Shown: positions 18,591 through 62,237 of the stretch, piece by piece | Layout of the letters: every line of letters begins with the position of its first letter | Position numbering within the stretch: the first letter of the stretch is position 1 | Origin: an uncultured Desulfovibrionaceae bacterium | GTDB taxonomy: Bacteria; Desulfobacterota; Desulfovibrionia; Desulfovibrionales; Desulfovibrionaceae | DNA length: 64,000 nucleotides | Assembly: GCA_944324045.1 (NCBI GenBank) | Contig: CALUUT010000068.1 | Span: 33,285-97,284, forward strand | Direction: 5' to 3' | Notes under the pieces: model-generated | What the model saw: the letters and a program-made list of their open reading frames with translations, nothing else | Database searches by the model: none | What the model was told of the DNA's origin: nothing | Made by a program: the position numbers and the translations under genes

Positions 18591-20150
18591 ATGATTTTTC
18601 GCGTGGCCGGGTTTGCCCTGCTTGGCGTGGATGCCTTCAAGGTGGACCTGGAAGTTGATATCGCCCGCAAAGGCATTCCCGCTTTTACCATGGTGGGGCT
18701 TGCGGAAGGTGCGGTGCGCGAATCCAAGGAGCGGGTTTTTGCAGCCCTGAAAAACGCGCGCTACGACATTCCGCCGGCCCGCATCACCGTCAACCTTGCG
18801 CCTGCCGACCGAAAGAAAGGCGGCAGCGCTTATGATCTGCCGCTTGCCATAGGGCTTTTGGGCGCGGCCGGATATCTGCGCCAGGAGGCGGCGTCGCCGT
18901 TTCTTCTGGCCGGCGAACTGTCCTTGTCCGGCGACGTGCGGCCTGTGTCCGGCATTCTGCCCATGGCGGTTCTCGCGCGCGACAGCGGCTTTTCCGGAAT
19001 CATCGTGCCCAAAGATAACGCGGCCGAGGCCGCTGTGGTCAAAGGGCTTGCCGTATATGCCGTGGAGACGCTCGCCGAAGCGGTGGAGGTCCTTTCCGGC
19101 GGCGTTGCGGAGCCGCATCATGCGCGCTCTTCCTTTGCGCCGGCAGTCCCGGAAGAACAGGATGCCGAATATGTTTCGGCTTTTGATTTCGCGGAAGTCA
19201 AAGGACAGGAACATGCCAAACGCGCCGTCGTCATCGCGGCGGCCGGCGGGCACAACATCCTTTTCGTCGGACCGCCGGGAAGCGGCAAAACCATGCTGGC
19301 CGAACGCATTCCAGGCGTGCTTCCGCCGCTTTCCTTTGAAGAGGCGCTGGAAGTCAGCAAGGTGTACAGCGTGGCCGGACTGTTGGCCCCGGGCAAGGGG
19401 CTGCTTGGGCGCAGGCCCTTTCGCGCGCCGCATCACACCATTTCCCGGATAGGACTTGTCGGCGGCGGAAGCGTTCCCCGGCCGGGCGAATTGTCCCTTG
19501 CGCACAAGGGCGTGCTTTTTTTAGACGAATTGCCGGAGTTCGGCCGCCAGACCCTTGAATCGCTCAGGCAGCCGCTTGAAAAAGGCCGCATCGTCATCAC
19601 CAGAGCCGGCGCGTCTCTGGAATTTCCCGCGGATATCATGCTGGTTGCGGCCATGAACCCGTGCCCGTGCGGCTATGCGACCGACCCCGGCCATGTCTGC
19701 ACCTGCACTGCGCATCAGATTCAACAATACCGGGCGCGCCTGTCCGGTCCCCTGCTCGACCGGATTGATCTGCACGTGGAAGTGCCGGCCGTGCCGTTTC
19801 AGGATTTTTCGGCGGATTCACTTCCGGACGGAGCGCCCGGAACGTCTTGCGCCATGCGGCAGGCTGTGGCGAACGCGCGCAGACGGCAAAGCGCGCGATA
19901 CAAAGAGACGGGGCTTTCCTGCAATGCCGATTTGTCCGGCCGCCGCCTGGAAACGTTCTGCCCGCTGTCCGGACCGGCTCGGGCGTTTCTTTCCCGCGCC
20001 GCGGACCGGCTCGCCCTATCGGCGCGCGCCTGTTCCCGCATCATCCGCATCGCCCGCACCATTGCGGATTTGGATGAGGCGCGGGACATTGACGCCCGCC
20101 ACCTGGCCGAAGCCGTGAACTACAGGGTTTTTGACCGGGAACGAAATTGA
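18591..20150 (+). CDS. comM: YifB/ComM-family Mg-chelatase-like AAA+ ATPase
   Basis: The ATG at 18591 is preceded by AAGGAGG. N-terminal Lon-protease-like domain, Walker A GPPGSGKTMLA, LFLDELPEF and a C-terminal Mg_chelatase_C-like tail. Confidence 0.9.
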   Translation: MIFRVAGFALLGVDAFKVDLEVDIARKGIPAFTMVGLAEGAVRESKERVFAALKNARYDIPPARITVNLAPADRKKGGSAYDLPLAIGLLGAAGYLRQEAASPFLLAGELSLSGDVRPVSGILPMAVLARDSGFSGIIVPKDNAAEAAVVKGLAVYAVETLAEAVEVLSGGVAEPHHARSSFAPAVPEEQDAEYVSAFDFAEVKGQEHAKRAVVIAAAGGHNILFVGPPGSGKTMLAERIPGVLPPLSFEEALEVSKVYSVAGLLAPGKGLLGRRPFRAPHHTISRIGLVGGGSVPRPGELSLAHKGVLFLDELPEFGRQTLESLRQPLEKGRIVITRAGASLEFPADIMLVAAMNPCPCGYATDPGHVCTCTAHQIQQYRARLSGPLLDRIDLHVEVPAVPFQDFSADSLPDGAPGTSCAMRQAVANARRRQSARYKETGLSCNADLSGRRLETFCPLSGPARAFLSRAADRLALSARACSRIIRIARTIADLDEARDIDARHLAEAVNYRVFDRERN

Positions 20151-20277
20151 ATGCTCAGGACGTTTCCGCGTTGCGGCCGCAATGCATTGACCCGCCCTTT
20201 GTCTCTTCGCGGCGCTTGAAAGCGCCGCGCTGTAATCCTTTTTGGCGTTTCTTCACGCCGGAAGAGCCCTTTTTTTC

Positions 20278-20559
20278 CTATATCGCCGGATTTCTTGAGA
20301 CAATAAAGGGACGCCCATCCGGATAGGCGTTGATGATGACCCCGCGCGTCAGCGCCAGGAGGTCTTTGTCTATGCAAAATGTATAACCGGCCACGGTCAC
20401 GACTTCATCAGATTTTTTCGGCTCGCCCGGAGCCAATGAAAAACGCGACTGCGCCCGTCAGCCGCAGGCCGGGCTATAGGCGACGCGCACTATCTGTTCG
20501 CCGGGCGCGGGAAATCGTTCCTTGAGCATCTTTTCCCCTGACCCTGTCACGCTGATCAT
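20278..20559 (-). CDS. HesB/IscA-like selenoprotein, 93 codons with in-frame UGA (Sec) at 20458-20460
   Basis: Not called in the ORF track, which stops at the TGA. Translation: MISVTGSGEKMLKERFPAPGEQIVRVAYSPACG-U-RAQSRFSLAPGEPKKSDEVVTVAGYTFCIDKDLLALTRGVIINAYPDGRPFIVSRNPAI, ending at TAG 20278. It is colinear over its full length with the Cys paralog 22475-22756 (..AACGCRAQPKMSLAPG..), with the UGA aligned to Cys. SD AAGGAGG sits 5 nt upstream. A SECIS-like hairpin lies downstream of the UGA. Confidence 0.85.
20412..20444 (-). promoter_or_regulatory. SECIS-like hairpin about 14 nt 3' of the UGA
   Basis: mRNA UGA-N14-UUUUUC AUU GGCUC CGGGC GAGCC GAAAAA. A 6-bp lower stem, a 3-nt bulge, a 5-bp upper stem and a G-rich 5-nt loop. 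The Cys paralog lacks an equivalent extended hairpin at this position. Confidence 0.6.
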
Positions 20560-20931
20560 ACTTATCCTCCTTAACAGCATAATCTTAACAGCATAATTCG
20601 AGTTGCCCGCGCAAAGACCGGAATGGGCCGGGCATCGCCGGGATTTGAAACCGCCCCTCTCTACGGGAGAAACACATTCCCGGCAGGACGGCGCAATCCT
20701 TTTTTGCAAGCCTGTCCTTGAGGGGTGGGCCATTCGCACGAGACCCATCTGCCGGCCGTGAAAAGCCAGTCGGCGGAATGGGGTAAGGCGCAAATTGAAC
20801 CATACGGCATGTCGCAGCCAACCGCAAGGCGCAAAAGCGCGCGGACAACGGCGTTCTGTTTTGCCGCGTTCCGCCTGCGGGAAAGCGGCATGGCGGCAAG
20901 GATGCGTAACGCATCGCGTTCTTTTCCCGGA

Positions 20932-22474: not shown

Positions 22475-22756
22475 TTATATCGCCGGATTTTTTGCGGTGA
22501 GAAAAGGCCGTCCGTCCGGATAGGCGCTGATGGTTATCCCGCGCGTCAACGCCAGAAGATCCTTGTCCACGCAAAAGGTATAGCCGGATATGGCGATGAC
22601 TTCGTCAGACGCTTTCGGCGTTCCCGGGGCCAGGGACATTTTTGGTTGCGCCCGGCAGCCGCATGCGGCGTTATAGGTGACGCGCAAGGTTTGCTTGCCG
22701 GCATCAGGGAATGTCGCCTTGAGCATGTTTTCCCCTGAACCTGTTATCGTGATCAT
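22475..22756 (-). CDS. HesB/IscA-like protein, Cys-containing paralog of the selenoprotein at 20278-20559
   Basis: 93-aa ORF MITITGSGENMLKATFPDAGKQTLRVTYNAACGCRAQ.... SD GGGAGGA upstream. Confidence 0.85.
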   Translation of the reverse strand: MITITGSGENMLKATFPDAGKQTLRVTYNAACGCRAQPKMSLAPGTPKASDEVIAISGYTFCVDKDLLALTRGITISAYPDGRPFLTAKNPAI

Positions 22757-22860: not shown

Positions 22861-23646
22861 TCAGGCGAACGTCGCCGGCGTCGGGCCGTGCGGCGTCAGC
22901 CGCGCATATTCAAACGGTTTGTATCCGGCCATGAGCACGGCGTAGACCTGGTGGTTTTCCGGAATGGGAACCCCTGGAAGCGTGACTCCGGCCTGCGCGG
23001 CATCGACCACAAACCCGGCCCAGCAACTGCCGATGCCGCGAGAGTGCAGGCTTAGGTCCAAAAATGCGGCCGCGACCGAGCAGCTTGTGCAGGCCATAAA
23101 GCTTTTCGGGTCGGCATGGGCGAATATGACGCACGGGGCATGCCGGAGAATGCGGTCAATCCCGCGTTCGTAGTTTTGGGCCACGATTTTCAGCTCTCCG
23201 CCCAGGGTGTGCATCCATGCGGCGACCGCAGCCGATATGGCGTCTATTTTTTCCACGCCTTCAACCACAGTCCAATGTACAGGCCGCAGATTGAAGGCTG
23301 AAGGCGCATTATTGGCGTCTTCAAGCGCCGCATTGAGAATATCGCGGGGAATCGGGTCTTTTTTATAGACCCGCGTCGAGCGGTGCCCTTTAAACAGCAT
23401 GGCGCGTTGTTCTTCGGACAAGGGCGCCTGAATGACCGGCGCAAGCTCTTCCGGCCCAAAGCCTTTGAATCGAATCGCGGCCTTTGGGCATACGGCGATG
23501 CAGTGCCCGCATTTGATGCAGCGTTCGGCGTCTTCTTCGATAAAACGCACGGTTTTGTCTTCCAGTCTCTCAAACAGGGCCGGGGAACAGACCTGTATGC
23601 AACGGCCGCACCGCACGCATCGCGACGCATCAAGTTCGACGTTCAT
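22861..23646 (-). CDS. 2x[4Fe-4S] ferredoxin domain fused to a nitroreductase-family domain
   Basis: CVRCGRCIQVCSP and CIKCGHCIAVCP cluster motifs, followed by nitroreductase-like RSTRVYKKDPIPRDILNAALEDANNAPSAFNLRPVHW. Confidence 0.85.
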   Translation of the reverse strand: MNVELDASRCVRCGRCIQVCSPALFERLEDKTVRFIEEDAERCIKCGHCIAVCPKAAIRFKGFGPEELAPVIQAPLSEEQRAMLFKGHRSTRVYKKDPIPRDILNAALEDANNAPSAFNLRPVHWTVVEGVEKIDAISAAVAAWMHTLGGELKIVAQNYERGIDRILRHAPCVIFAHADPKSFMACTSCSVAAAFLDLSLHSRGIGSCWAGFVVDAAQAGVTLPGVPIPENHQVYAVLMAGYKPFEYARLTPHGPTPATFA

Positions 23647-23808: not shown

Positions 23809-24390
23809 TTATTTGAAAATTTTGGCGGCCACGTCGCTGATCTGGGCCATGGCCGGCTCAAGAGCCGCGCCGGCGTCGCCCACGGGCGGAAGGTTGAGCC
23901 CTCTGACAACATGAACGTCTTTGCATGCGCAACTGCGGCTGAGCACTGCGCTGTAGCGGTCCACGACGTCCTTGAAAGCCTGTTCCACAGGAGCGCCCTG
24001 GGTTACGACGAGAACCAGCGTTTTGCCGCCCGCAAGACGCGAAGGCTCGGGGTTGGTCTTGAAATCGGGTTTGAAGAAACTGAATGTGCGGTCTATGAAG
24101 GCTTTTGTCTGAGAAGTGACGTCGCTCATATATACGGGCGTTCCCACGGCGACCACGTCGGCATCGGCAATGGCCTTCAGAACGGGAGTCAGGCCGTCGT
24201 CCAGGCGGCAGTGATCCATTTTCTGCTTGCAGGCGAGCACGCAGCTTTGGCAGCCGGAAAACGTCAGGTCGTTCAACTGGAAGCAGAGAACATCGGCTCC
24301 GCTCTTTTTGGCCGCATCAGCAAAGGCGTCCAGAAGTTTCGCGGTGCTGCCCTCTTTTCTGGGGCTTCCGCAAATGGCTACAACTTTCAT
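23809..24390 (-). CDS. iron-sulfur flavoprotein / NADPH-dependent FMN reductase family
   Basis: MKVVAICGSPRKEGST flavodoxin-like start. Compact Cys motif CQSCVLACKQKMDHC. VVAVGTPVYMSDV. Confidence 0.8.
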   Translation of the reverse strand: MKVVAICGSPRKEGSTAKLLDAFADAAKKSGADVLCFQLNDLTFSGCQSCVLACKQKMDHCRLDDGLTPVLKAIADADVVAVGTPVYMSDVTSQTKAFIDRTFSFFKPDFKTNPEPSRLAGGKTLVLVVTQGAPVEQAFKDVVDRYSAVLSRSCACKDVHVVRGLNLPPVGDAGAALEPAMAQISDVAAKIFK

Positions 24391-25068: not shown

Positions 25069-26232
25069 CTACAGGGCCTCTTCCGGGAAAAGCGCTTCGT
25101 AGCGCGCTTTGAGTTCTGCAAATTGGCCTTCCGCAATGGCCCTGCGCGCGGCGCGCACGGTGTCCAGAAAAAACATGAGATTATGCAGCGAATTGAGTCT
25201 GAAGGATAACAGTTCCTTGGCGGTATAGAGATGGCGCAGATATGCGCGGCTGAACGTGCGGCATGTGTAACAGGAGCAGCATGGATCAAGCGGACCGTCG
25301 TCTTCCGCAAATTCCCGCCGTTTGATATTGATTTTGCCCTGCGAGGTGTAGAGTGTGCCGTTGCGCGCGTTGCGCGTGGGCAGCACGCAGTCGAACATGT
25401 CGACGCCCGCGTCGATGCCCCGTATGATATCAAGGGGCGTGCCCACGCCCATAAGATATCGGGGTTTGTCCTGCGGAAGAAGCGGCGCGCAGTGATATAA
25501 AAATTCCATCATTTCCGGCTTGCTCTCGCCCACGGACAGCCCGCCGATTGCAAACCCGTCAAACGGATGCCGGGTCAGTTCTTCAATGGAGCGTTCCCGC
25601 AGGTCTTTGAAAAATCCGCCCTGGGTTATGGCGAAGAGAAGATTCCCCGCTGCCCCGGAATGCAGCAGATGGGGCGGATAGGCGTCTCTGCATCGCAGGG
25701 CCCAGCGCGTGGTCAGCCCTACGGATTGTTCCGTGTACGTCCTGTCCGCGCCATAGGGCACGCACTCGTCAAGCGCCATCATAATGTCGGAGTTCAAGTT
25801 CCTCTGGATGGAGATGACTTTTTCAGGCGTGAATATGTGCTTTGACCCGTCAAGATGCGAGCGAAAGGTTACGCCTTCTTCCGTGAGCGTGCGCAGCGAG
25901 GACAGGCTGAAAACCTGAAATCCGCCGCTGTCCGTGAGGATGGGCTTGCGCCAGGCGTTGAATTCGTGCAGGCCGCCGCGCCGGGCGACAAGTTCGTCGC
26001 CCGGTCTTAAATACAGATGATAGGTGTTGCCGAGAATGATTTCCGCGCCCACGGCGTCCAGGTCGTCGGGCGCTATGGCCTTGACGCTTCCGACCGTGCC
26101 CACGGGCATGAAAATGGGGGTGTGCACCATGCCGTGCGCGGTATGCAAAACGCCTCTGCGCGCGGCTCCGTCCCTGGCCAGAATCCGGAAGACGCCCGGA
26201 TATTCCGTTGTTATTGCGGCATGTTGTGTCAT
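25069..26232 (-). CDS. tgt: queuine tRNA-ribosyltransferase
   Basis: [44 protein letters not shown] and the zinc motif CCSCYTC..H. Homology starts at the ATG at 26232; the 98 upstream ORF codons are not Tgt-like. Confidence 0.93.
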
Positions 26233-26280
26233 GAAAGCATTGTACCTTTCAAAACGCTGTTTGAAAAGAGCGCAGTCAGG

Positions 26281-26329
26281 AAAAAAATACGCCCCTTGAG
26301 CGCGCCGGACAGGGCGCGTCAAAGGGGCG
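26281..26329 (-). terminator. intrinsic terminator after the MFS transporter gene
   Basis: Long GC hairpin cgcccctt..ggcgcg..aaggggcg followed by UAUUUUUUU on the minus strand. Confidence 0.7.
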
Positions 26330-26357
26330 AGGGGTTTTTGCGGGAATGATGCGGGCG

Positions 26358-27575
26358 TTAGTGTTCCGGCATCCTGTACACTTTTCTGTGATTCATGAAC
26401 GTCCAGGTGGCCAGCGAAAAAGCGCCGATGACCATGGTGATGACGGACAGGCGGAAGATGAAGGACGTGCCCCAGTTCAGGGAAGAGAGCATCATGGAGA
26501 TGGAGCCGCACAGCAGGGCCGTGCATACGATCAGCGAAGCCACGGTGCCATTATCCGACGTATGTTGGGACATCATAAGCACCGTGCCCAGAGGACGAAC
26601 GCAGGCGCAGCAGAATGTGACCGGCGCATAGAGAAAAGCGAAGAAAAACGGCCCGTTTTCGCCGAAGAAGAAGAGCAGCGCGCCAAAACAGAAGACCAGG
26701 GTGAAGATCACGCTTAAAAAACGGACCCGGGGCAGGTTGCGCAGAACACGCATGTACAAAATGGGGCCAAGCATGGAGAAGACCGCGTTAATGAGGAAAA
26801 AGAAACTGTATTCTTGAGTGGTGCGCTGGAAGAAGTTGATATAAATATAAGAGGAAGAGGCCAGAAAGGCCATGAACGGCATGATAAGACAGGAAAAAAG
26901 CAGAAGCAGCCAGCGGTAGCCGCTGTTTTTCAGCACGAAGCCTATGCGCCCGAGCGAGCGGAAGGGAGAGCCTTGAGTGCGTTCGCCCACAGTTTCCCTA
27001 AGGCCCAGGCTCAGCGCGAGCGCTATGACGCCGCAGGCGGTCAGCACCCAGAATGTGCCTCGCCAGGAAAGGTAATTGAGCAAAAACGCGCCGATCATGG
27101 GCGCGAACATGGGCGAGAGGACCGTCATGGTCTGGATGAGCGCGAGCACGCTTTCCATCAGGCGTCCGCGGAACGTGTCCTTGACAATGGCCATGGATAC
27201 GGAAGAGAGCGCCCCGCAGCTGAGAGCCTGAATGCAGCGGCCGATAATGAGCCATGTAATGGTCGGGGCATTGGCGCACAGGACGCTGGACAGGATGTAG
27301 ATGGAAAATCCCGTGAACAGGATGGGCTTTCTGCCGTATTTGTCGCTTAAGGGGCCCCAGATCAGCATGGAGAACGCAAAGACCAGCATGAACAGACTTA
27401 ACGTCAGGTTCACCGTATCCGCGTCGGCGTTGAAGATGCGCGCCATATGCGGAAGCGCGGGGAGGTAGAGGTCTGTGGAAATGGGAACAAAGGCGTTTAA
27501 AAAAGTGAGAAGACCAATAAGAAATTTTTGTCCCAGCGCATGAGGGCATGGGGTGCTGGTCGGGGTGTCCGTCAT
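26358..27575 (-). CDS. MFS transporter, Bcr/CflA drug-resistance subfamily
   Basis: The ATG at 27575 follows [22 protein letters not shown] and [14 protein letters not shown] motifs. About 12 TM segments. Confidence 0.85.
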
Positions 27576-27871
27576 TGTTCGCTCCTTGTTGCAACAGGTT
27601 GCGCGTACCGGCGACAGATGGAAAAGCGCGAAAAGCTTGCCGCAAGCCGCGGCGTTTCCGGCGGAAACGTCTTTGCTTTTCAAGCGGCTGCCATGGACCG
27701 GGCCGCCTGGACGCCTGCCGGGGAAAATTTGCGGAATGTACCGAACATATTAACTGAAATTAGTCAATGGAAATAATGTGGGAAAGAATGCGCGGAATAT
27801 ATGGGGAGAGTTTCAGGGGGCCGCGTTTTTGCCGGACGCGGCCGTTTTGCAGGGCTGATTTTTGAAAGCGG

Positions 27872-35907: not shown

Positions 35908-37074
35908 TCAGGCCAGAAGCGTCATATCGCCGTCGAGCATGGCCAGCGCAAGGGCTTTTTCCTCCCGAAGCCGGGACTGGACCGCGCTGCGCACCCTGCT
36001 GCTTGAAGAGCCGAACTGCCGCGAGCGCAGGGCGTAGATGTTTTCAATAAGCGACTTGTCGAAAACTTCCTGATTGACGGTCCCGTTTTTCCCGCCGGCC
36101 GCGACTTTTTGTTCCGTCTTGTTCATGGCCCTTGAAAAAATGCGCGCCGCCCCGCCCGGACCATGCTGCACCGCGGTGCTGAAGAGCACTTCCTGAAGCG
36201 CCGGCGACATTTCGTTGGGGTCAAGTCCTGTGTTGCGGATGAGGGCCTGCAGGGCCGGCTTATAATGATTGTCATGGACAAAGCGGTCCTGGAGCGATTC
36301 AAACAGTTCGGGATTTTCAGCGGCCAGTTGCTTCCAGATTCGCGGCATGCGGCCGTTTCTGCCGCCCGTGTCCGCTTCGCCGGCGGCCTGAAGCCGCCTG
36401 GCCCAATCCGGCTGTTGCTTGCGCAGATATTTTATGAACTGGTCCATGGTCCCGGCGCGCGATGAAAGCTGGTATTTTCCATAGGACGTTCCGCCATGGG
36501 CGTCATATCCGATGACGGAAATATCTTCGCCTGATTCAAAATGCGCGGACAAAGCGCCGGTCACTTCGGCCGGGACGTTCGGCTTTTTGGGCGTTTTGTC
36601 CGGCGGGGTTACGGAGCCGCGCACGGCGCCCCGGCCGGATATGCCGCGTTCCGGGGAAAGATATCCCGACAGGGCAAGAAGGGTGCTGTGCGTGTTGACG
36701 ATGTTGCGCAGGGTGTCCAGGGTGCTGTCCGTGGGGCTGCTGCTTTGGGAGAGCATGTCGAGCGTGTTGAACAGCTGCGCGTTCATCATGTGCAACGTCT
36801 GCTGCGCCTTGGCCGGCATGCCGCCGGACATTTGCGACGGCGTGCGGGAAATAGGCGTGATTTTCGCCATGCCGGGCGCGCGCCCTGAGGAACGCACGGC
36901 AACGGGCCGGAGGCTTTCGCGCTCGTTTGCATCTTTTGTCTTGTCTGCATCCGCTATGGCGTCGGCAAATTTGCGGGCCTGGATTGTGTCGCGCGCGCGT
37001 TCCTGCTTTTTGTCGTTGGTCGTGGCTGATATCTGCCGCGTGGTTGGTGTTCCGAAAAGAATGCTGTTGTTCAT
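35908..37074 (-). CDS. hypothetical protein with no signal peptide, a Ser/Thr/Pro-rich N-terminal half and a globular C-terminal domain (possibly lysozyme/chitosanase-like)
   Basis: 388-aa ORF with SD GGAGGGGAG. The C-terminal segment HFESGEDISVIGYDAHGGTSYGKYQLSSRAGTMDQFIKYL resembles, from memory only, VgrG3-C/chitosanase-like cell-wall hydrolase domains. It has a sigma54-type promoter upstream and its own terminator. Confidence 0.6.
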   Translation of the reverse strand: MNNSILFGTPTTRQISATTNDKKQERARDTIQARKFADAIADADKTKDANERESLRPVAVRSSGRAPGMAKITPISRTPSQMSGGMPAKAQQTLHMMNAQLFNTLDMLSQSSSPTDSTLDTLRNIVNTHSTLLALSGYLSPERGISGRGAVRGSVTPPDKTPKKPNVPAEVTGALSAHFESGEDISVIGYDAHGGTSYGKYQLSSRAGTMDQFIKYLRKQQPDWARRLQAAGEADTGGRNGRMPRIWKQLAAENPELFESLQDRFVHDNHYKPALQALIRNTGLDPNEMSPALQEVLFSTAVQHGPGGAARIFSRAMNKTEQKVAAGGKNGTVNQEVFDKSLIENIYALRSRQFGSSSSRVRSAVQSRLREEKALALAMLDGDMTLLA

Positions 37075-45764: not shown

Positions 45765-47069
45765 TTATACTTTTGCGCGGATGTGCTCTCCCGTCGCAGA
45801 TCGCGTCTTGGTCGAAGATTGCCGCGTGCGGGATTGCCGCTGGGGCGTCAGCACGCTTCGCTCAAGCGCCTGGGTTTCTTCTTCCCGCAAGGCGCGTTCT
45901 TTTTCGAATGCATTATCTTCAATATCGTCCTCACTTTGCCTGATTTTTTCTTTCAGGGCAAAGTTTTTGGCTTTCTTTTGCGCGGCATGGACCGCACGCG
46001 CCGTCGGCATTTCATGCTTGAATATAAGCCGCCACACGCTTGATTTTTCCGCAGCCGTCAGAGAATCGGTCAGCCCCGCGCCCGCGGAAAGAGCGGAAAT
46101 CGGCAACCCCATATTCAGGGCCACGTTGACGAGTTCGCCATATGTATCGGCTTCGTCAAGTTTGGTCCAGATAAGACTTGCAAGGTTTTCCGACCGGTAA
46201 ATTTCGGCGAAGACGGATAATTGACGTCCGCTGTACTGCGGCGAGAGCAAAAGGTGGATATCCATATTTCGGGATACGAATCCCATGCGGCTCATGGCCG
46301 CGGCCAGGGAATCGCCCCTTGCCGGAGCCGGGAAATCAATGATGAACCTGTCCGCTTCGTGACCGTTTCTGGCCCATTTGGCCAGGTCTTTGGCCGAGGC
46401 CGCCTCACAGTAAAGAAGATCTGAAAGTTCGGCATAGTGTTTGAGCACAAGGCGGCCGTGCCCTTTGTTCACATCCGCGTTGACAAGACAGACCGCCATA
46501 TCCGGATTTTCGTTTTTAAGCGCAAGGGCCAGGCGCAGGGCGGTCACGGTTTTTCCAACCCCCGCAGGTCCGGTCACGGCGTGGATGCGTTGAGGCCATT
46601 TGTCCGCCGCCCACGGACGGCATGGAACCATGGCGGAGAGCGGCTCCAGAATGGAAGCGTGAGGCGTGACGATGAGCGCGCGGTAAAGGTGCAAAATGGC
46701 GTTGTCGTTTACGCCTTCCTGCTGAAGGTATTCAAGAGCGGCGCGCTGGCGTTGCGTCAGATCGCCAAGACGCATGTGCGGCTTTAAAAGCGCCATAAAA
46801 TGGTCATGTATCTGCGCCCATTCGCGCTGCCAGCTTTTTGGTCCCGGTCCGGAAAAAGAAGGACGGGCCATGCCTTCATGCGCCCCTGCGTTCGGTTGGC
46901 CGGCTCCCGGCGGCTGCTCGCGCTCGACACCTGCGGTGACCTCGCTTAAATTCTTGCCGTCGCGGCGCACTGTCCGGGAAGAAAGGATAACGGCGTCCGG
47001 TCCCAGTTCTTCCTTTATTTCTGCAAGAATCGTTTTGGTGTTCGGGCCAAGATATGTTTTTATATGCAT
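45765..47069 (-). CDS. flhF: flagellar biosynthesis GTPase FlhF
   Basis: N-terminus MHIKTYLGPNTKTILAEIKEELGPDAVILSSR. SRP-type G domain GPAGVGKTVT, with DFPAP in place of the canonical DTAG. Confidence 0.9.
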   Translation of the reverse strand: MHIKTYLGPNTKTILAEIKEELGPDAVILSSRTVRRDGKNLSEVTAGVEREQPPGAGQPNAGAHEGMARPSFSGPGPKSWQREWAQIHDHFMALLKPHMRLGDLTQRQRAALEYLQQEGVNDNAILHLYRALIVTPHASILEPLSAMVPCRPWAADKWPQRIHAVTGPAGVGKTVTALRLALALKNENPDMAVCLVNADVNKGHGRLVLKHYAELSDLLYCEAASAKDLAKWARNGHEADRFIIDFPAPARGDSLAAAMSRMGFVSRNMDIHLLLSPQYSGRQLSVFAEIYRSENLASLIWTKLDEADTYGELVNVALNMGLPISALSAGAGLTDSLTAAEKSSVWRLIFKHEMPTARAVHAAQKKAKNFALKEKIRQSEDDIEDNAFEKERALREEETQALERSVLTPQRQSRTRQSSTKTRSATGEHIRAKV

Positions 47070-47089
47070 TGGACGTTTCCGGCACTACG

Positions 47090-49180
47090 TTAAAGCGTTA
47101 CGCTGCCCACCGAACTAAGACGGATATCGCTGGGTATTTCCGCCTGCGATATGACGGGCACGCCCGGCAAAAAGCGCATGACGAGCTGAGCCAGATGCGG
47201 TCTGACCGAAGGCGTCGCAAGAACCACGGGCTGCCCGTCCGTGACCACGGCGTTTTCCACAAGGGCGCTTATTTTCTGCATGATCTGTTGCGCCGTTCCG
47301 GGCGGCAGAGCAAGATAGGCGCCGCCTTCAGTCTGGCGCAGGCTCTCCTGGATGGTCCGGTCGACGGCAAGATCAAGCGATATGACGCCAAGGCCGCCAT
47401 CCGAGCCAAGATACGGCTTTACAATGGTGCGGCTTATGCGTTCGCGCACATATTCCGTCAGGACTTCGGGATTTTTCACGGCCGTTCCATAATCCGCAAG
47501 GGTTTCGACGATGCTGAGCAGATCGCGGATGGAAACGTTTTCGCGCACGAGGTTCTGCAAAACCTTCTGCACCACGCCAAGCGGCAGAATGCCGGGCACA
47601 AGCTCTTCCACAGCCTTGGGCGCGGTTTTCGCCAGATTGTCCAGAAGTCCCTGGACTTCCTGCCGCCCAAGGAAATCTCCCAGATGGCGTTTGAACACTT
47701 CCGTAAGATGCGTGGCGATGACTGTGGCCGGATCCACCACGGTGTAGCCCGCGAGCATGGCCTCTTCCTTGCGGCTTTCCGGTATCCAGAGCGCCGGGAG
47801 ATTGAACGCGGGCTCGCGCGTTTCCACGCCGCTTATGCGGTGCGCCGCGTTGCCCGGGTCCATGGCCAGGAAGTGATCAATAAGGATTTCCGCGGAAGCC
47901 ACTTCATTGCCTTTAATGAGCAAGGAATACTGCCCGGGTTTGAGCTGGAGATTGTCGCGCAGGTGCAGCGACGGAATTATGACGCCCATATCCAGAGCGA
48001 ATTGCCGTCTTATGGCCCTGATGCGCGACAGAAGGTTGCCGCTTTGCTCCTCATCCACCAATGGAATGAGTCCATATCCCACTTCCAACTCAAGCGTGTC
48101 AAGAGGCAACAGGGATTGCACGGCTTCCGGCGTATCAAGAGGCGCCGCATCGGGCTTTTTCTCTTTGGCGGCGCTTGCCGCATCAGGAGCGACTTTGCTG
48201 ATGGCGCGCGCAACCAGGAAAAGCAGGGCCGCAAATATGAGGAAGGGAATCGTGGGCATTCCAGGGACTATGGCGAATATCAGCAATACGGCGGCGACCA
48301 GCTTGAGGGCGCGCTGGTTGAAGGCGAGCTGTCCCAGAACTTCTTCGCCCATTTTGGCTTCCGCCGCCGCGCGGGACACGATGATGCCGGCGGCGGTGGA
48401 TACGATGATCGAAGGAATGGTGGCTACAAGCCCGTCGCCCACCGTGAGCAGGGTATAGGTGGTGAGCGCGTCGCGCCACTCCATGCCCTGCTGCACGACG
48501 CCTATGATGATGCCGCCGATGATGTTGATGAACGTGATGATAAGTCCGGCGGTCACGTCTCCCTGCACGAATTTGCCCGCGCCGTCCATGGCGCCGTAAA
48601 AGTCGGCTTCCTTGCGGATGTTGGTGCGCCGTCTGGTGGCTTCGGCTTCGTCGATGACGCCTGCGTTCAGGTCCGCTTCAATGGCCATTTGCTTGCCGGG
48701 CATGGCGTCAAGGGTAAAGCGCGCCGCGACTTCCGCGATGCGCGTCGTGCCTGCGGTGATAACCATTTTATTTAGAATAAATAAAATGAAAAAGATAATG
48801 ATGCCGACGACATAACTGCCGCCCACAACGAACGCCCCAAAAGCCTGAATGATCTCGCCGGCGGCCCCCGGACCTTCGCTGCCGTGCAGGAGAATAAGGC
48901 GTGTGGAAGCCACGTTCAATGCCAGGCGAAGAAGCGTCGTCACCAAAAGCAGCGTGGGAAATACGGAAAACTCCAGAGGCGAGAGCATGAACATGGATGT
49001 GATCAAAATGATAAGGGACAGGGAAATGGACAAAGAGAGCATGATATCAAGAAAAAAGGTCGGAAGCGGGACGAGCATGACAAAAAGAATGACGACCACG
49101 CCGCCGGCAAGAACAATGTCGCCCTGTTTGGCGAATTTGGCATAGGGTATTTCCGGTATCAGTCCTGGTGCTTTGGCCAT
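47090..49180 (-). CDS. flhA: flagellar export apparatus protein FlhA
   Basis: FHIPEP region (FPTLLLVTTLLRLALNVASTRLIL, AGEIIQAFG, RFTLDAMPGKQMAIEADL) plus the cytoplasmic domain. The maximal ORF start at 49198 is TTG. Confidence 0.96.
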   Translation of the reverse strand: MAKAPGLIPEIPYAKFAKQGDIVLAGGVVVILFVMLVPLPTFFLDIMLSLSISLSLIILITSMFMLSPLEFSVFPTLLLVTTLLRLALNVASTRLILLHGSEGPGAAGEIIQAFGAFVVGGSYVVGIIIFFILFILNKMVITAGTTRIAEVAARFTLDAMPGKQMAIEADLNAGVIDEAEATRRRTNIRKEADFYGAMDGAGKFVQGDVTAGLIITFINIIGGIIIGVVQQGMEWRDALTTYTLLTVGDGLVATIPSIIVSTAAGIIVSRAAAEAKMGEEVLGQLAFNQRALKLVAAVLLIFAIVPGMPTIPFLIFAALLFLVARAISKVAPDAASAAKEKKPDAAPLDTPEAVQSLLPLDTLELEVGYGLIPLVDEEQSGNLLSRIRAIRRQFALDMGVIIPSLHLRDNLQLKPGQYSLLIKGNEVASAEILIDHFLAMDPGNAAHRISGVETREPAFNLPALWIPESRKEEAMLAGYTVVDPATVIATHLTEVFKRHLGDFLGRQEVQGLLDNLAKTAPKAVEELVPGILPLGVVQKVLQNLVRENVSIRDLLSIVETLADYGTAVKNPEVLTEYVRERISRTIVKPYLGSDGGLGVISLDLAVDRTIQESLRQTEGGAYLALPPGTAQQIMQKISALVENAVVTDGQPVVLATPSVRPHLAQLVMRFLPGVPVISQAEIPSDIRLSSVGSVTL

Positions 49181-49253
49181 GATTTTGACGCCTTTCAAAT
49201 TGAGTTTGTTACAGCGAACGCCCGTTTTCCATGAGCGGCGTTTCTGGAATCCG

Positions 49254-50324
49254 TCACTTTTTCCTTAGTTTTGACCGGAACTTGCTCAGCCCGGCGAGTA
49301 TTCCCGCCACTGCCTTGTACAGATCTTCCGGAATGACGTCGCCAACCTTGACACTTTTATACAAAGCCCGTGCCAAAAGAACGTTTTCCCTGATGGGAAC
49401 ACTGTGTTTTCTTGCTTCCTCTTTTATTTTTTCCGCAAGATGGTTCGCGCCCATTGCGACTACAATCGGCGCCGGAGCCTGGGCGGCGTCATACATGAGA
49501 GCGACGGCGATATGGGTGGGGTTGGTGATGACCACATCGGCCTTTCGCACGCTTTGCAGCATGCGTTTGCCCATGGTCTCCATCATTTTTTGACGCTGTT
49601 TGCCCTTGATGATCGGATCGCCCAGGATTTGTTTTTGTTCTTCCTTGACGTCCTGTTTGCTCATTTTGATGTTTTCTTCATAGTCCCAGCGGGTATAGAT
49701 AAGATCGGCAATCGCGATGAGCGTCATGGGAATAAGCGCATACACGGCCATTTTAAAGCCGACGGAAAGCATGAATTCCGCAAGTTGTCCGGCGTCAGAA
49801 TGATACAGCCCCATGAAGTTGTCGAACTCGCTTCGAAATACAAGCCATGGCGCGATGCCGATTACAACGGCCTGGAGCACGCTTTTCCCAAGACGGATCA
49901 GGGTCTTTGGCGAAGCGAACATATTTTTTATGCCGTTCACAATATTAAAATTGGAAAATTTGAATTTGAGAACTTCGGTGGTCCAGAGTTTGCCGACTTG
50001 TTTGCGCATGGCGATAAAGGCAAGAAGCCCGATAAAAAATAAAATGGGCAGAACCATTTTGGCCAGAAACAGGCAGGCCCATATAAACAGGCTGTAAACG
50101 CTTTGTTTATCGACATTAAAGCTCATGAATTCAGTCAGAAAATGGCGGAACGCAACCTGAAATTCGCTGCTCATGTAGCTTATGTAGGCATAAAGACCCA
50201 GCAGGCCGCCAATAACGGTGATAGTTTTGCTGACCTCCTGCGACTTGGGAACATTTCCTTTTTTTCGGATTTTTTCACGCTGTTTCGGCGTCGCTTTTTC
50301 TGTTTTACTGGGATCTCTGGCCAT
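49254..50324 (-). CDS. flhB: flagellar export apparatus protein FlhB
   Basis: SKTEKATPKQREKIRKKGNVPKSQE and the autocleavage NPTH motif (VVITNPTHIAVAL). Confidence 0.96.
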   Translation of the reverse strand: MARDPSKTEKATPKQREKIRKKGNVPKSQEVSKTITVIGGLLGLYAYISYMSSEFQVAFRHFLTEFMSFNVDKQSVYSLFIWACLFLAKMVLPILFFIGLLAFIAMRKQVGKLWTTEVLKFKFSNFNIVNGIKNMFASPKTLIRLGKSVLQAVVIGIAPWLVFRSEFDNFMGLYHSDAGQLAEFMLSVGFKMAVYALIPMTLIAIADLIYTRWDYEENIKMSKQDVKEEQKQILGDPIIKGKQRQKMMETMGKRMLQSVRKADVVITNPTHIAVALMYDAAQAPAPIVVAMGANHLAEKIKEEARKHSVPIRENVLLARALYKSVKVGDVIPEDLYKAVAGILAGLSKFRSKLRKK

Positions 50325-50433
50325 GGAAAGATTCCTGCTTCAGTGTTGTTCCGGCAACGCCCGGACAGGCGTCTTGCGTTTGTTTGGCGCGTGCGGGCGG
50401 CAACGTCTCTGTTCCCGTTTTGTCTGGAAACGG

Positions 50434-51225
50434 TCAGTTGAATGAAGGGCTTGCGGCCCTAAGGAGGTGGAGAAACATGGGGCCCATTTCCATGATGAAT
50501 TCCCGAATGCGGTCTGCCATGGCCATGAAAAGAAGGCCCAGAAAGAACATGCCGATACCGATTTTCAAGGGAAACCCCAGCATCATGATATTCATTTGCG
50601 GCGCGGCGCGGCCCATGAGCGCCAGCGCAAGTTCCGCCAGAAACAGGGCGGCCATAACCGGCGCGGCTATCTTCACCGCAATGAGAAACATATCTGCGGA
50701 CAGAGAAAACACCTGGCGCGCCAAGACGCTGTTGACCGCCAGTCCGCCCGGCGGGATTAAGGAAAAGGATTCCGAAAGCGCGCGCAGCATGAACAGATGT
50801 CCGTTTAAGGTGAGAAAGGTCAGCAAAGCGACTGTGTAAAGCAAGTGCGACGTGACGGGTTCTTGTTGTCCGGTGAGCGGGTCTGCGATATTCATCATGG
50901 TAAAACCCATTTGATACGCCAGAAGCTGGCCGCCGGTCTGCATGCCCGCAAAAAGAAACTGAATGCACATGCCAAGAATAAGGCCCAGCAGCGCTTCGGA
51001 AAAAAGCATGGCCACAAGCCCGAAAGTGTGCGTGGGAAACAGCGCGCCGTCAAAGGACAGTCCGGGAAAGACGGCCAGGGTGAAGACAATGCATAAGGCG
51101 GCCTTGCCCGCGACAGGCAGAGATTGAGCGCCGAAAACCGGAAGCAGAAACACGACCAGGCTTATGCGCATGAGCGTGAGCAGGAAAGCGGCGAAAAGCA
51201 GGGGGTTGAATGAGAAAATATCCAT
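50434..51225 (-). CDS. fliR: flagellar export apparatus protein FliR
   Basis: Polytopic membrane protein with LLTLMRISLVVFLLPVFG and GLILGMCIQFLFAGMQTGGQLLAYQMGF. The ATG at 51225 follows AAGGTA. Confidence 0.9.
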   Translation of the reverse strand: MDIFSFNPLLFAAFLLTLMRISLVVFLLPVFGAQSLPVAGKAALCIVFTLAVFPGLSFDGALFPTHTFGLVAMLFSEALLGLILGMCIQFLFAGMQTGGQLLAYQMGFTMMNIADPLTGQQEPVTSHLLYTVALLTFLTLNGHLFMLRALSESFSLIPPGGLAVNSVLARQVFSLSADMFLIAVKIAAPVMAALFLAELALALMGRAAPQMNIMMLGFPLKIGIGMFFLGLLFMAMADRIREFIMEMGPMFLHLLRAASPSFN

Positions 51226-51385
51226 TACCTTAAAATTTAGCAAAAAATGAGCCAATAAACTGTGTATTTATAATACATTGATTTTATAAGATATTTTTGA
51301 AGATAGGGGGATAAGCGCCAATCTTTGACGTTTCCTTTTCTTGCCTTGTGGTCATTATTCTGGCAGTTGCTGGACACGGAGGTGC

Positions 51386-60776: not shown

Positions 60777-62237
60777 TCATTTTTCTGACAACTCTGAATC
60801 GTGCGCTATCGCCGCGGCCTGTTGCAGGGATTTGGCGACAAGCGGGAACTCTTCTTCGGCAATGGTCCGCGGGTCAAGAAGAAAGCCGTTGTCTTCAATT
60901 CTGCCCAAAACCGGCGTATCCGCATGCAGAAGGGCCGCGCGCAGGCTTTCGACTGTGAAAGACGACGCAGTCGGCTCAAGGCATACAAGGCTTGTGGGCA
61001 AGTCCCGCTCAGGGAAGGCGCCGCCGCCTATGCGCGAGCACCCGGGGCGTATGCGCGCCGTGACCGGCGCCCCGGCGTTTTTTAAAGCGGCTTCAAGAAT
61101 GTCGGCCAGTTTTTCGGCTTTTTGGCGCAACAGGGGTTCAGGCAGAAGAATCATGTTCAGCGTGGGAACATGGCGGGCCGCCATACCCGGCTCAAGGTAC
61201 AGCTCAAGTGTGGCTTCAAGCGCGGCAAGCGTCAGTTTGTCCAGACGCAGCACGCGGGCCAGGGGATTTTTTTTCAAAACCTCGATATATTTTTTCCGGC
61301 CGGCAATAATCCCGGCCTGGGGCCCGCCCAGTATTTTGTCGCCGCTAAAGAGAATCAGGTCCGCTCCGTCCGCGGCTATGCGTTGCGCCATGGGCTCGTC
61401 CTGCGACAGACAGGCGAATTCCGCGGCGGCGTGGGATGCGAAATCATACAGGTTGCCGCTGCCAAGATCCACAAAAACCGGGATGCCGCGCTGCTTTCCA
61501 AGCAGGGCCACATCCCGGACCGACGCCTCTTCATGAAAGCCCGTTATCCGGTAGTTTGAAGGATGCACCTTCATGAGCGCCGCCGTATTTTCCGTTATGG
61601 CCTGCGCGTAGTCTCCGATTCGGGTGCGGTTGGTCGTTCCCACTTCGCGCAGGAGCGCGCCGCTTTTGGTCATGATATCGGGAATGCGGAATGAGCCGCC
61701 TATTTCCACAAGTTCCCCGCGCGAGAGAATGACCTCTTTTCCCCGGCAGAACGTGTCCAGCACAAGAAACACGGCCGCCGCATTATTGTTTACCGCAAGC
61801 GCCGCCTCTGTTTTGACGATGCGGCATAGAAGCGGCTCCACATGGGAATGCCGGCTCCCCCGCAAGCCTGTGCGCAGGTCAAGTTCAAGGTTCGTGTAGT
61901 ATTTTCCGGCCATGAGCACGGCGTCCAGGGCTTTTTGGGATAAAAGGGAGCGGCCGAGATTCGTATGCGCCACAATGCCGGTGCCGTTTATTACTTGCCG
62001 CAGGGACGCATATCGTGCCGTGCGGACGAAATCGCGCAATTCAGGAAGCAATGCGGCAAGGGCCAGCTCCTTTTCATCACGGATTGTTCCGTTGCGAACG
62101 GCATTGCGTTTTCCGTCAAGGAATGCGTTGATCGCATCGCGCAGCAACGTGCGCGGAATGTTCCGGAATGTTTCGGTTTCGCTCAGGGCTGCAAGCAGAA
62201 CATCCACGGCGGGCAGGCGGCGAAAAAGTCGGTTCAT
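60777..62237 (-). CDS. selA: L-seryl-tRNA(Sec) selenium transferase
   Basis: SelA N-domain (LPAVDVLL...), INGTGIVAHTNLGRS, and the PLP lysine region FSGDKILGGPQAGII. Confidence 0.93.
   Translation of the reverse strand: MNRLFRRLPAVDVLLAALSETETFRNIPRTLLRDAINAFLDGKRNAVRNGTIRDEKELALAALLPELRDFVRTARYASLRQVINGTGIVAHTNLGRSLLSQKALDAVLMAGKYYTNLELDLRTGLRGSRHSHVEPLLCRIVKTEAALAVNNNAAAVFLVLDTFCRGKEVILSRGELVEIGGSFRIPDIMTKSGALLREVGTTNRTRIGDYAQAITENTAALMKVHPSNYRITGFHEEASVRDVALLGKQRGIPVFVDLGSGNLYDFASHAAAEFACLSQDEPMAQRIAADGADLILFSGDKILGGPQAGIIAGRKKYIEVLKKNPLARVLRLDKLTLAALEATLELYLEPGMAARHVPTLNMILLPEPLLRQKAEKLADILEAALKNAGAPVTARIRPGCSRIGGGAFPERDLPTSLVCLEPTASSFTVESLRAALLHADTPVLGRIEDNGFLLDPRTIAEEEFPLVAKSLQQAAAIAHDSELSEK

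Follow-up and report, generated by a model that had tools for sequence, protein, structure and literature searches.

A UGA-containing gene that probably encodes a small selenoprotein of the IscA/HesB fold from a rare, divergent clade

HesB-like selenoproteins are an established family found in Desulfovibrio species (PMC1794560) and also listed in PMC13188914, where their active-site motif is given as U/C-x-G-P (Table 1) and where several other families of selenoproteins appear with C-x-U motifs. As reported in PMC11097638, 75Se labelling in Methanococcus maripaludis has confirmed a HesB-like selenoprotein; the classical members are without established function (PMC11097638). The family is known to have Cys-containing homologs, and also remnant SECIS structures in forms that do not carry selenocysteine (Sec) (PMC1794560). 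The locus that we describe lies in a window of 64 kb (the whole stretch of DNA analysed), and the comparisons below suggest that positions 20559-20278 of the minus strand are very probably a genuine Sec-encoding gene. Its product resembles the HesB-like selenoproteins in being a small single-domain protein of the IscA/HesB fold (about 90-110 aa), in the position of Sec in the loop after strand 2, and in a GGCUC..GAGCC stem that follows the UGA by 20 nt in the classical and L007-type genes and by 23 nt in the window type. It differs from them in its motif, which is C-G-U-R/G in the window clade and G-G-U-S-G-P in the classical members, and in its C-terminus, since the classical members carry a Cys/Gly/Ser-rich tail (alignments A4 and A5) that the window clade does not have. 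The features on which the comparison rests are these:

20278..20559, minus strand: candidate Sec gene, 93 codons, from ATG 20559-20557 to TAG 20280-20278 (translation)
20460-20458, minus strand: in-frame UGA at codon 34, taken as selenocysteine in a C32-G33-U34 motif
20566..20570, minus strand: Shine-Dalgarno GGAGG, 6 nt 5' of the ATG, read from the sequence
20434-20420 (20418..20436 with the outer pairs), minus strand: candidate SECIS core stem-loop GGCUC-CGGGC-GAGCC, 23 nt after the UGA
20239..20264, no strand assigned: terminator-like hairpin flanked by T/A runs, one on either side, from a consensus scan only
22475..22756, minus strand: Cys paralog (P0001), 93 aa, motif C-G-C, with TGC at codon 34
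60777-62237, minus strand: selA (L-seryl-tRNA(Sec) selenium transferase), Pfam PF03841 SelA, 466 bits, E 8e-140

The frame of the candidate gene runs for 33 codons to the TGA and then for 59 open codons to the TAG, and with the UGA read through its translation is MISVTGSGEKMLKERFPAPGEQIVRVAYSPACG-U-RAQSRFSLAPGEPKKSDEVVTVAGYTFCIDKDLLALTRGVIINAYPDGRPFIVSRNPAI. The coordinates proposed in the sequence-only reading, from ATG 20559 to TAG 20278, held, as did its length of 93 codons for both this gene and the paralog. By BLASTP the protein (with U written as C) aligns with the Cys paralog without gaps, 63 of 93 residues being identical (68%, E 2e-52), and in the part 3' of the UGA, counted from the same alignment, 42 of 59 are identical (71%), in agreement with the roughly 70 percent first estimated for the C-terminal part. 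The UGA pairs with C34, the second Cys of the paralog's C-G-C (..PACG-U-RAQSR.. against ..AACG-C-RAQPK..), and the ungapped alignment thereby confirms the pairing that had been read from the letters. An open frame of 59 codons is by itself weak evidence; homology that continues across the UGA is, judged from this alignment, far beyond chance. Shine-Dalgarno sequences, GGAGG or GGAGA/GGGGG, likewise precede the relatives in L010, L106, L007 and L109. In public collections we found such genes only as a 33-aa N-terminal stub (L106) and as 54-aa C-terminal stubs (P0020, P0088), with no entry for the window's own copy, which is the fate that the sequence-only reading had foreseen for this gene under standard gene callers.

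The 372 nt between the DUF3089 gene and the candidate gene (20560-20931) hold no convincing ORF, no Rfam match at gathering thresholds and no sigma-70-like promoter by consensus scan, and Rfam at the same thresholds finds no RNA family at the locus of the gene itself. On the other side, the terminator-like hairpin at 20239..20264 sits between the convergent comM (which ends at 20150) and the candidate gene (which ends at 20278). Two copies of an 11-nt direct repeat, ATGCTGTTAAG, separated by 3 nt, lie just 5' of the gene's Shine-Dalgarno and extend into it (window positions 20556-20586, minus strand); in L010 this site bears another small duplication (CTTGAACTATG).

The homologous codon is TGA in four lineages, whose proteins are 38-97% identical to that of the window. 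An ortholog of 97% identity in L010 keeps the TGA together with the gene order of the window (Cys paralog, DUF3089, Sec gene, comM), and one of 74% identity in L106/L108 has TGA at the same codon in the same lepA-lepB-comM neighbourhood. In L106 a Cys gene (P0087, motif C-S-C) precedes the TGA form, publicly called as the 33-aa stub at 2605-2706, by 238 nt (span 2086-2886), so that the two forms are direct tandem neighbours there, whereas in the window the DUF3089 gene stands between them. Two further lineages, L007-L009 and L109-L111, are 38% identical, keep the TGA beside a tRNA-synt_1c gene and read ..FEQGCG-TGA-GGRRM(T/M)LAPGEP.., and in these the callers retained the C-terminal stubs. The Cys paralogs have TGC as this codon, and L006 has GGA (Gly), which indicates that the residue can be lost. 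After the TGA, the window and L106 genes are separated by 31 synonymous and 10 non-synonymous differences, with a dN/dS of 0.047; the synonymous sites are near saturation (pS 0.67, about two thirds differ). L007 against L109 gives a dN/dS of 0.118. Measured in this way, purifying selection acts strongly on the sequence 3' of the TGA, and with so many synonymous differences the relatives are not assembly copies of one sequence. The proposed check of this gene against HesB-like selenoproteins and their Cys homologs has given homology, a UGA aligned with Cys and a TGA kept in orthologs.

The clade is very rare: searches found it on a handful of metagenome contigs, and its peptide patterns recovered no relative among 185,579 species-representative genomes. 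Among the matches listed for ComM, the best come from MAGs of Desulfovibrio and Desulfovibrionaceae and reach no more than 57% identity, so that a placement of the organism in the Desulfovibrionaceae is tentative on this basis, and no homolog of the candidate gene stands beside comM in the 80 loci among the matches listed.

The bSECIS model calls for a stem-loop that follows the UGA closely and has a G in its apical loop. The candidate gene has both features, a GGCUC/GAGCC stem and the G-containing loop CGGGC, in a stem of five inner base pairs that outer U-G and U-A pairs lengthen to 7 bp; the element overlaps the codons for L-A-P-G-E-P, its apical loop begins 28 nt after the UGA, and GGCUC-CGGGC-GAGCC occurs as a single copy in the 64-kb window. 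GGCUC-N5-GAGCC is the sole helix common to all Sec forms, and each of the 11 distinct TGA forms, the classical HesB-like genes from metagenomes included, keeps it intact at a spacing of 20 or 23 nt from the UGA. The inner five pairs are invariant across these 11 sequences, the outer two vary from U-G to U-A and from U-A to C-G, and the loops are G-rich (CGGGN, UGGAU, UGGAC, AGGAU). In the L007/L109 type the spacing is 20 nt, and one extra codon brings it to 23 nt in the window type; in the classical genes L017-L022 (..LAPGG-U-SGPRLALALDEP..) and L024/L025 (..RAS-U..) the same stem follows the UGA by exactly 20 nt and has UGGAU, UGGAC or AGGAU as its loop. Between the window and L106, differences along the codons UUG GCU CCG GGN GAG CC are limited to the loop and to the bases just past the stem. 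The hairpin is broken in 5/5 distinct Cys forms: the stem has decayed to GGCCC..ACGCC in the window and L010 paralogs (GGCCC-CGGGA-ACGCC in the window), to GGUCC..GAGUC in the L106 Cys gene and to GGCUC..ACUCC in the classical Cys form L023. In the C-N-A-C forms L015 and L016 the helix is absent.

The stem is short, and because it overlaps the conserved L-A-P-G-E-P, its conservation is partly protein-driven; covariation is limited to one outer pair, and the folding energy of the single sequence does not differ significantly from that of shuffles. The argument for a SECIS rests on conservation that is specific to the Sec forms and on a spacing in common with established family members. A stem that stays nearly identical across proteins of about 35% identity points to a recoding signal inherited with the family. 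The sequence-only reading had described a bulged hairpin from about 14 nt after the UGA; a long bulged helix does form in a single-sequence fold, but it starts at about 8 nt, and the conserved stem-loop lies at 23 nt. This long lower helix folds no better than shuffled sequences (z -0.6 to -1.0) and is unconserved outside the window type, and we set it aside as a signal, claiming only the upper stem of 5-7 bp. A terminator-like stem-loop that spans the UGA itself (20466-20444, minus strand) and is followed by UUUUU was likewise treated as chance, which it probably is, given that it is unconserved in the 74% ortholog of L106.

The homolog in L006 (P0002, at L006:331-609) lies 3' of a ferredoxin-nitroreductase gene, like the window's Cys paralog. 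It has GGA exactly at the Sec codon together with an intact GGCUC-CGGGA-GAGCC hairpin, and its sequence has the look of a case in which Sec was recently lost to Gly and the SECIS stayed behind as a remnant. A Gly codon with the helix kept resembles the remnant SECIS structures described for the HesB-like family (PMC1794560).

The presence of selA in the window, noticed from the letters and now backed by the Pfam SelA match, marks the selenocysteine-decoding trait in this genome. No tRNA-Sec was found in the 64-kb window, where ARAGORN and Rfam at gathering thresholds give three ordinary tRNAs only, and neither selB nor selD is among the ORFs scanned in it. A crude codon-usage screen for further TGA-bridged coding ORFs in the window gave nothing convincing.

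Three other readings of the UGA have to be weighed against Sec insertion. The gene could be a duplicated copy of the Cys gene, now in decay after a nonsense mutation from TGC to TGA, a reading invited by the full-length Cys paralog 2 kb away, by the single base between TGA and TGC, and by public collections that call no gene at the window locus. It is hard to reconcile with the retention of TGA at this codon by four lineages, the most distant of them 38% identical, with a sequence that has no further stops or frameshifts, and with a hairpin conserved in the TGA forms only and degraded in the Cys forms; the dN/dS values after the TGA rule out a decaying pseudogene, and we regard this origin as extremely improbable. 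The locus could instead give two products, a 33-aa peptide that ends at the UGA and a downstream part translated from an internal start (TTG 20436, or ATG in L007/L109). The ORF listing and the public callers do give a downstream ORF of 52-54 aa, and L007/L109 have an ATG four codons after the UGA. That internal start nevertheless differs in position and kind between the clades, the conserved RAQSR and GGRR just after the UGA lie upstream of it, both halves form one IscA-like domain that matches Cys homologs and solved structures end to end, and half a beta-sandwich would not fold, so that we give two separate products hardly any chance.

A UGA read through with another residue, by a near-cognate Trp or Cys tRNA or through reassignment of UGA to Gly or Trp, would make the Gly of L006 the true residue, and the GGA at its Sec codon is what speaks for it. 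TGA is, however, the normal stop of 11/28 Pfam-backed ORFs in the window, at a G+C of about 56%, which rules out a reassigned code; selA is present in the window, the downstream hairpin matches that of established HesB-like selenoprotein genes, and the paralogs have Cys, the usual partner of Sec, at the homologous residue. We consider decoding as anything other than Sec very unlikely. Insertion of Sec, which had been proposed from the letters of this one gene, is the reading that now also has the TGA in four lineages, a dN/dS of 0.05-0.12 after it and the hairpin in all 11 TGA forms behind it.

The candidate protein has no match to Pfam PF01521 (Fe-S_biosyn), for which the Cys paralog reaches 17.5 bits against a gathering threshold of 26.3. 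It scores 31.5 bits on NF038090 (IscA_HesB_Se; cutoff 85), on which all clade members reach 24-38 bits, and 19.1 bits on TIGR01911 (HesB_rel_seleno; cutoff 66.35), whereas the classical proteins of the L017 type and of alignment A4 obtain 115-119 bits on NF038090. Scores under the thresholds of NF038090, TIGR01911 and Pfam Fe-S_biosyn indicate a divergent sister clade and not a textbook member. With hhalign, the clade profile matches a profile of classical small HesB-like proteins, themselves passing NF038090, at 99.5% probability (E 1.1e-22). When the Cys paralog is modelled with AlphaFold (pLDDT 87.6), the model finds its only significant PDB matches in IscA (1x0g, 1s98, 1r94), SufA (2d2a), AQ_1857, HI1723, DsrR and YneR, with TM of 0.54-0.68 for IscA, SufA, AQ_1857 and HI1723. 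A sequence profile that combines the clade with classical members matches the same IscA/HesB entries of the PDB; the clade-only profile had no match among PDB sequences, and the classical members had to be added. The model of the paralog and these profile matches support a predicted IscA/HesB (A-type carrier) fold for the candidate protein, and the HesB/IscA-like identity first assigned to it is borne out. Taken with the UGA, the analysis supports a selenoprotein of 93 residues with this fold, in a divergent, rare and tail-less C-G-U clade.

Giant repeat proteins of 1,000-4,900 aa (P0003-P0019 and others) were also retrieved by phmmer, with E down to 1e-29, and were discarded as cumulative repeat scoring. 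They match through short repeats resembling SDEVIxIxGYxxxxDKDxL, and the two that we inspected (P0006, P0018) are surface-repeat proteins and not IscA-like; the resemblance is probably convergent or compositional.

The Sec position falls in the least confident loop of the model, between strands 2 and 3, and this loop is presumably flexible. In the hhalign alignment it is the invariant C32, and not U34, that is paired with the canonical Cys. This placement is probably a loop-gap artefact, since the L007/L109 type and the classical genes align without gaps over the stretch between the UGA and the codons of the hairpin, an alignment that puts U34 on the classical Sec. From this alignment we favour U34 as the classical Sec position, which we take to be Cys35 of E. 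coli IscA, the first cluster ligand. The clade is further characterized by its C-G-U pair, by a C-terminus without a Cys-rich tail, and by a conserved AYPDGRPF..KNPAI near its end (..AYPDGRPFIVSRNPAI, which contains no Cys); the motif reads C-G-U-R-A-Q in the window type and C-G-U-G-G-R in the L007 type, with no G-P after the Sec. Of the three Cys ligands of IscA-type proteins (C-x(n)-C-x-C), the first position alone is present, as U34, and the C-terminal C-x-C is absent.

Compared with IscA, SufA and ErpA (PF01521; 1x0g, 1s98, 2d2a), the clade has the same fold by Foldseek (TM 0.6-0.68, probability 1.0) and by profile search, but not the C-terminal C-x-C pair, and the candidate gene stands outside any isc, suf or nif operon. 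The DsrR/YneR-type proteins (2k4z, 9a4q) are likewise small, have the IscA fold and lack the canonical Cys ligands at the C-terminus, and they are among the best structural matches; sequence identity is about 17%, and the genomic contexts are unrelated. To our knowledge, no selenocysteine has been reported in DsrR/YneR-type proteins.

Following the known bacterial pathway, the stem-loop 23 nt 3' of UGA34 would act as a bacterial SECIS that recruits SelB-GTP-Sec-tRNA(Sec) to the ribosome, with selenocysteine inserted at UGA34 in place of termination; SelA, encoded 40 kb away, would make the Sec-tRNA(Sec). The Sec would then occupy the flexible loop that joins strands 2 and 3, with a second Cys two residues before it (C-G-U), and this pair, possibly together with C62, could form a redox-active selenenylsulfide or a metal- or Fe-S-binding site. 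Since the clade has no C-terminal Cys pair or tail of the kind that binds Fe-S in IscA-type proteins, the C-G-U pair is what is most likely used. It seems unlikely that the protein holds an Fe-S cluster in the manner of IscA, and a redox-active or metal-binding C-x-U site appears more plausible. The neighbouring Cys paralog may serve as the selenium-independent isoform. This functional part of our explanation is much less certain than the claim of a Sec gene. As a tentative proposal, which we would sooner expect to fail than to hold, the clade might be a distinct, uncurated subfamily of IscA-fold selenoproteins ('HesB-like form 2'), with the C-G-U loop pair, no C-terminal Cys ligands, the conserved AYPDGRPF and usually a Cys twin beside it, acting in selenenylsulfide redox or chalcogen transfer and not as an Fe-S carrier, its Sec/Cys pair being selenium-dependent and -independent isoforms as in methanogen isoenzymes.

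The result is an annotation correction more than new biology, and it would not surprise a selenoprotein specialist: the Sec site and the SECIS are shared with known HesB-like selenoproteins, and the clade is missed by the current curated models. The gene is missing or in stubs in every public copy that we found, because the UGA is read as a stop and the curated HesB-like models miss the clade. A clade-based family model combined with the signature TGA-N20/23-GGCTC-N5-GAGCC would recover such genes. The clade also offers a compact system for asking what selenium does in the IscA/HesB fold: the Fe-S-binding tail has been lost and a Cys two residues from the Sec gained, Sec and Cys twins lie adjacent, and in one natural variant a Gly codon takes the place of the Sec codon.

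Classical HesB-like genes with an in-frame TGA are likewise present in the metagenome contigs (L017-L022, L024 and L025; for example L017:700-1026 and L024:1549-1836). Those of the L024/L025 type read RAS-U and have a short tail ending in GTCSH/GTCAR; at 69.8 bits on NF038090, under the cutoff, they would also escape model-based annotation.

Directly upstream of the Cys paralog stand genes for a 4Fe-4S ferredoxin-nitroreductase fusion (22861-23646) and for an FMN reductase (23809-24390), neighbours that would fit a redox setting and possibly a selenium-independent isoform. Further along, the ORFs of TGT (queuine tRNA-ribosyltransferase, 25069-26526) and of an MFS transporter (26358-27683), both on the minus strand, overlap by 169 nt. 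As listed, the TGT ORF has an N-terminal extension of 119 residues that overlaps the upstream transporter ORF, and its true start is probably further downstream. The window also encodes a protein with a type VI secretion VgrG3-like C-terminal domain (35908-37074) and a flagellar export cluster (flhF-like, flhA, flhB, fliR; 45765-51255).
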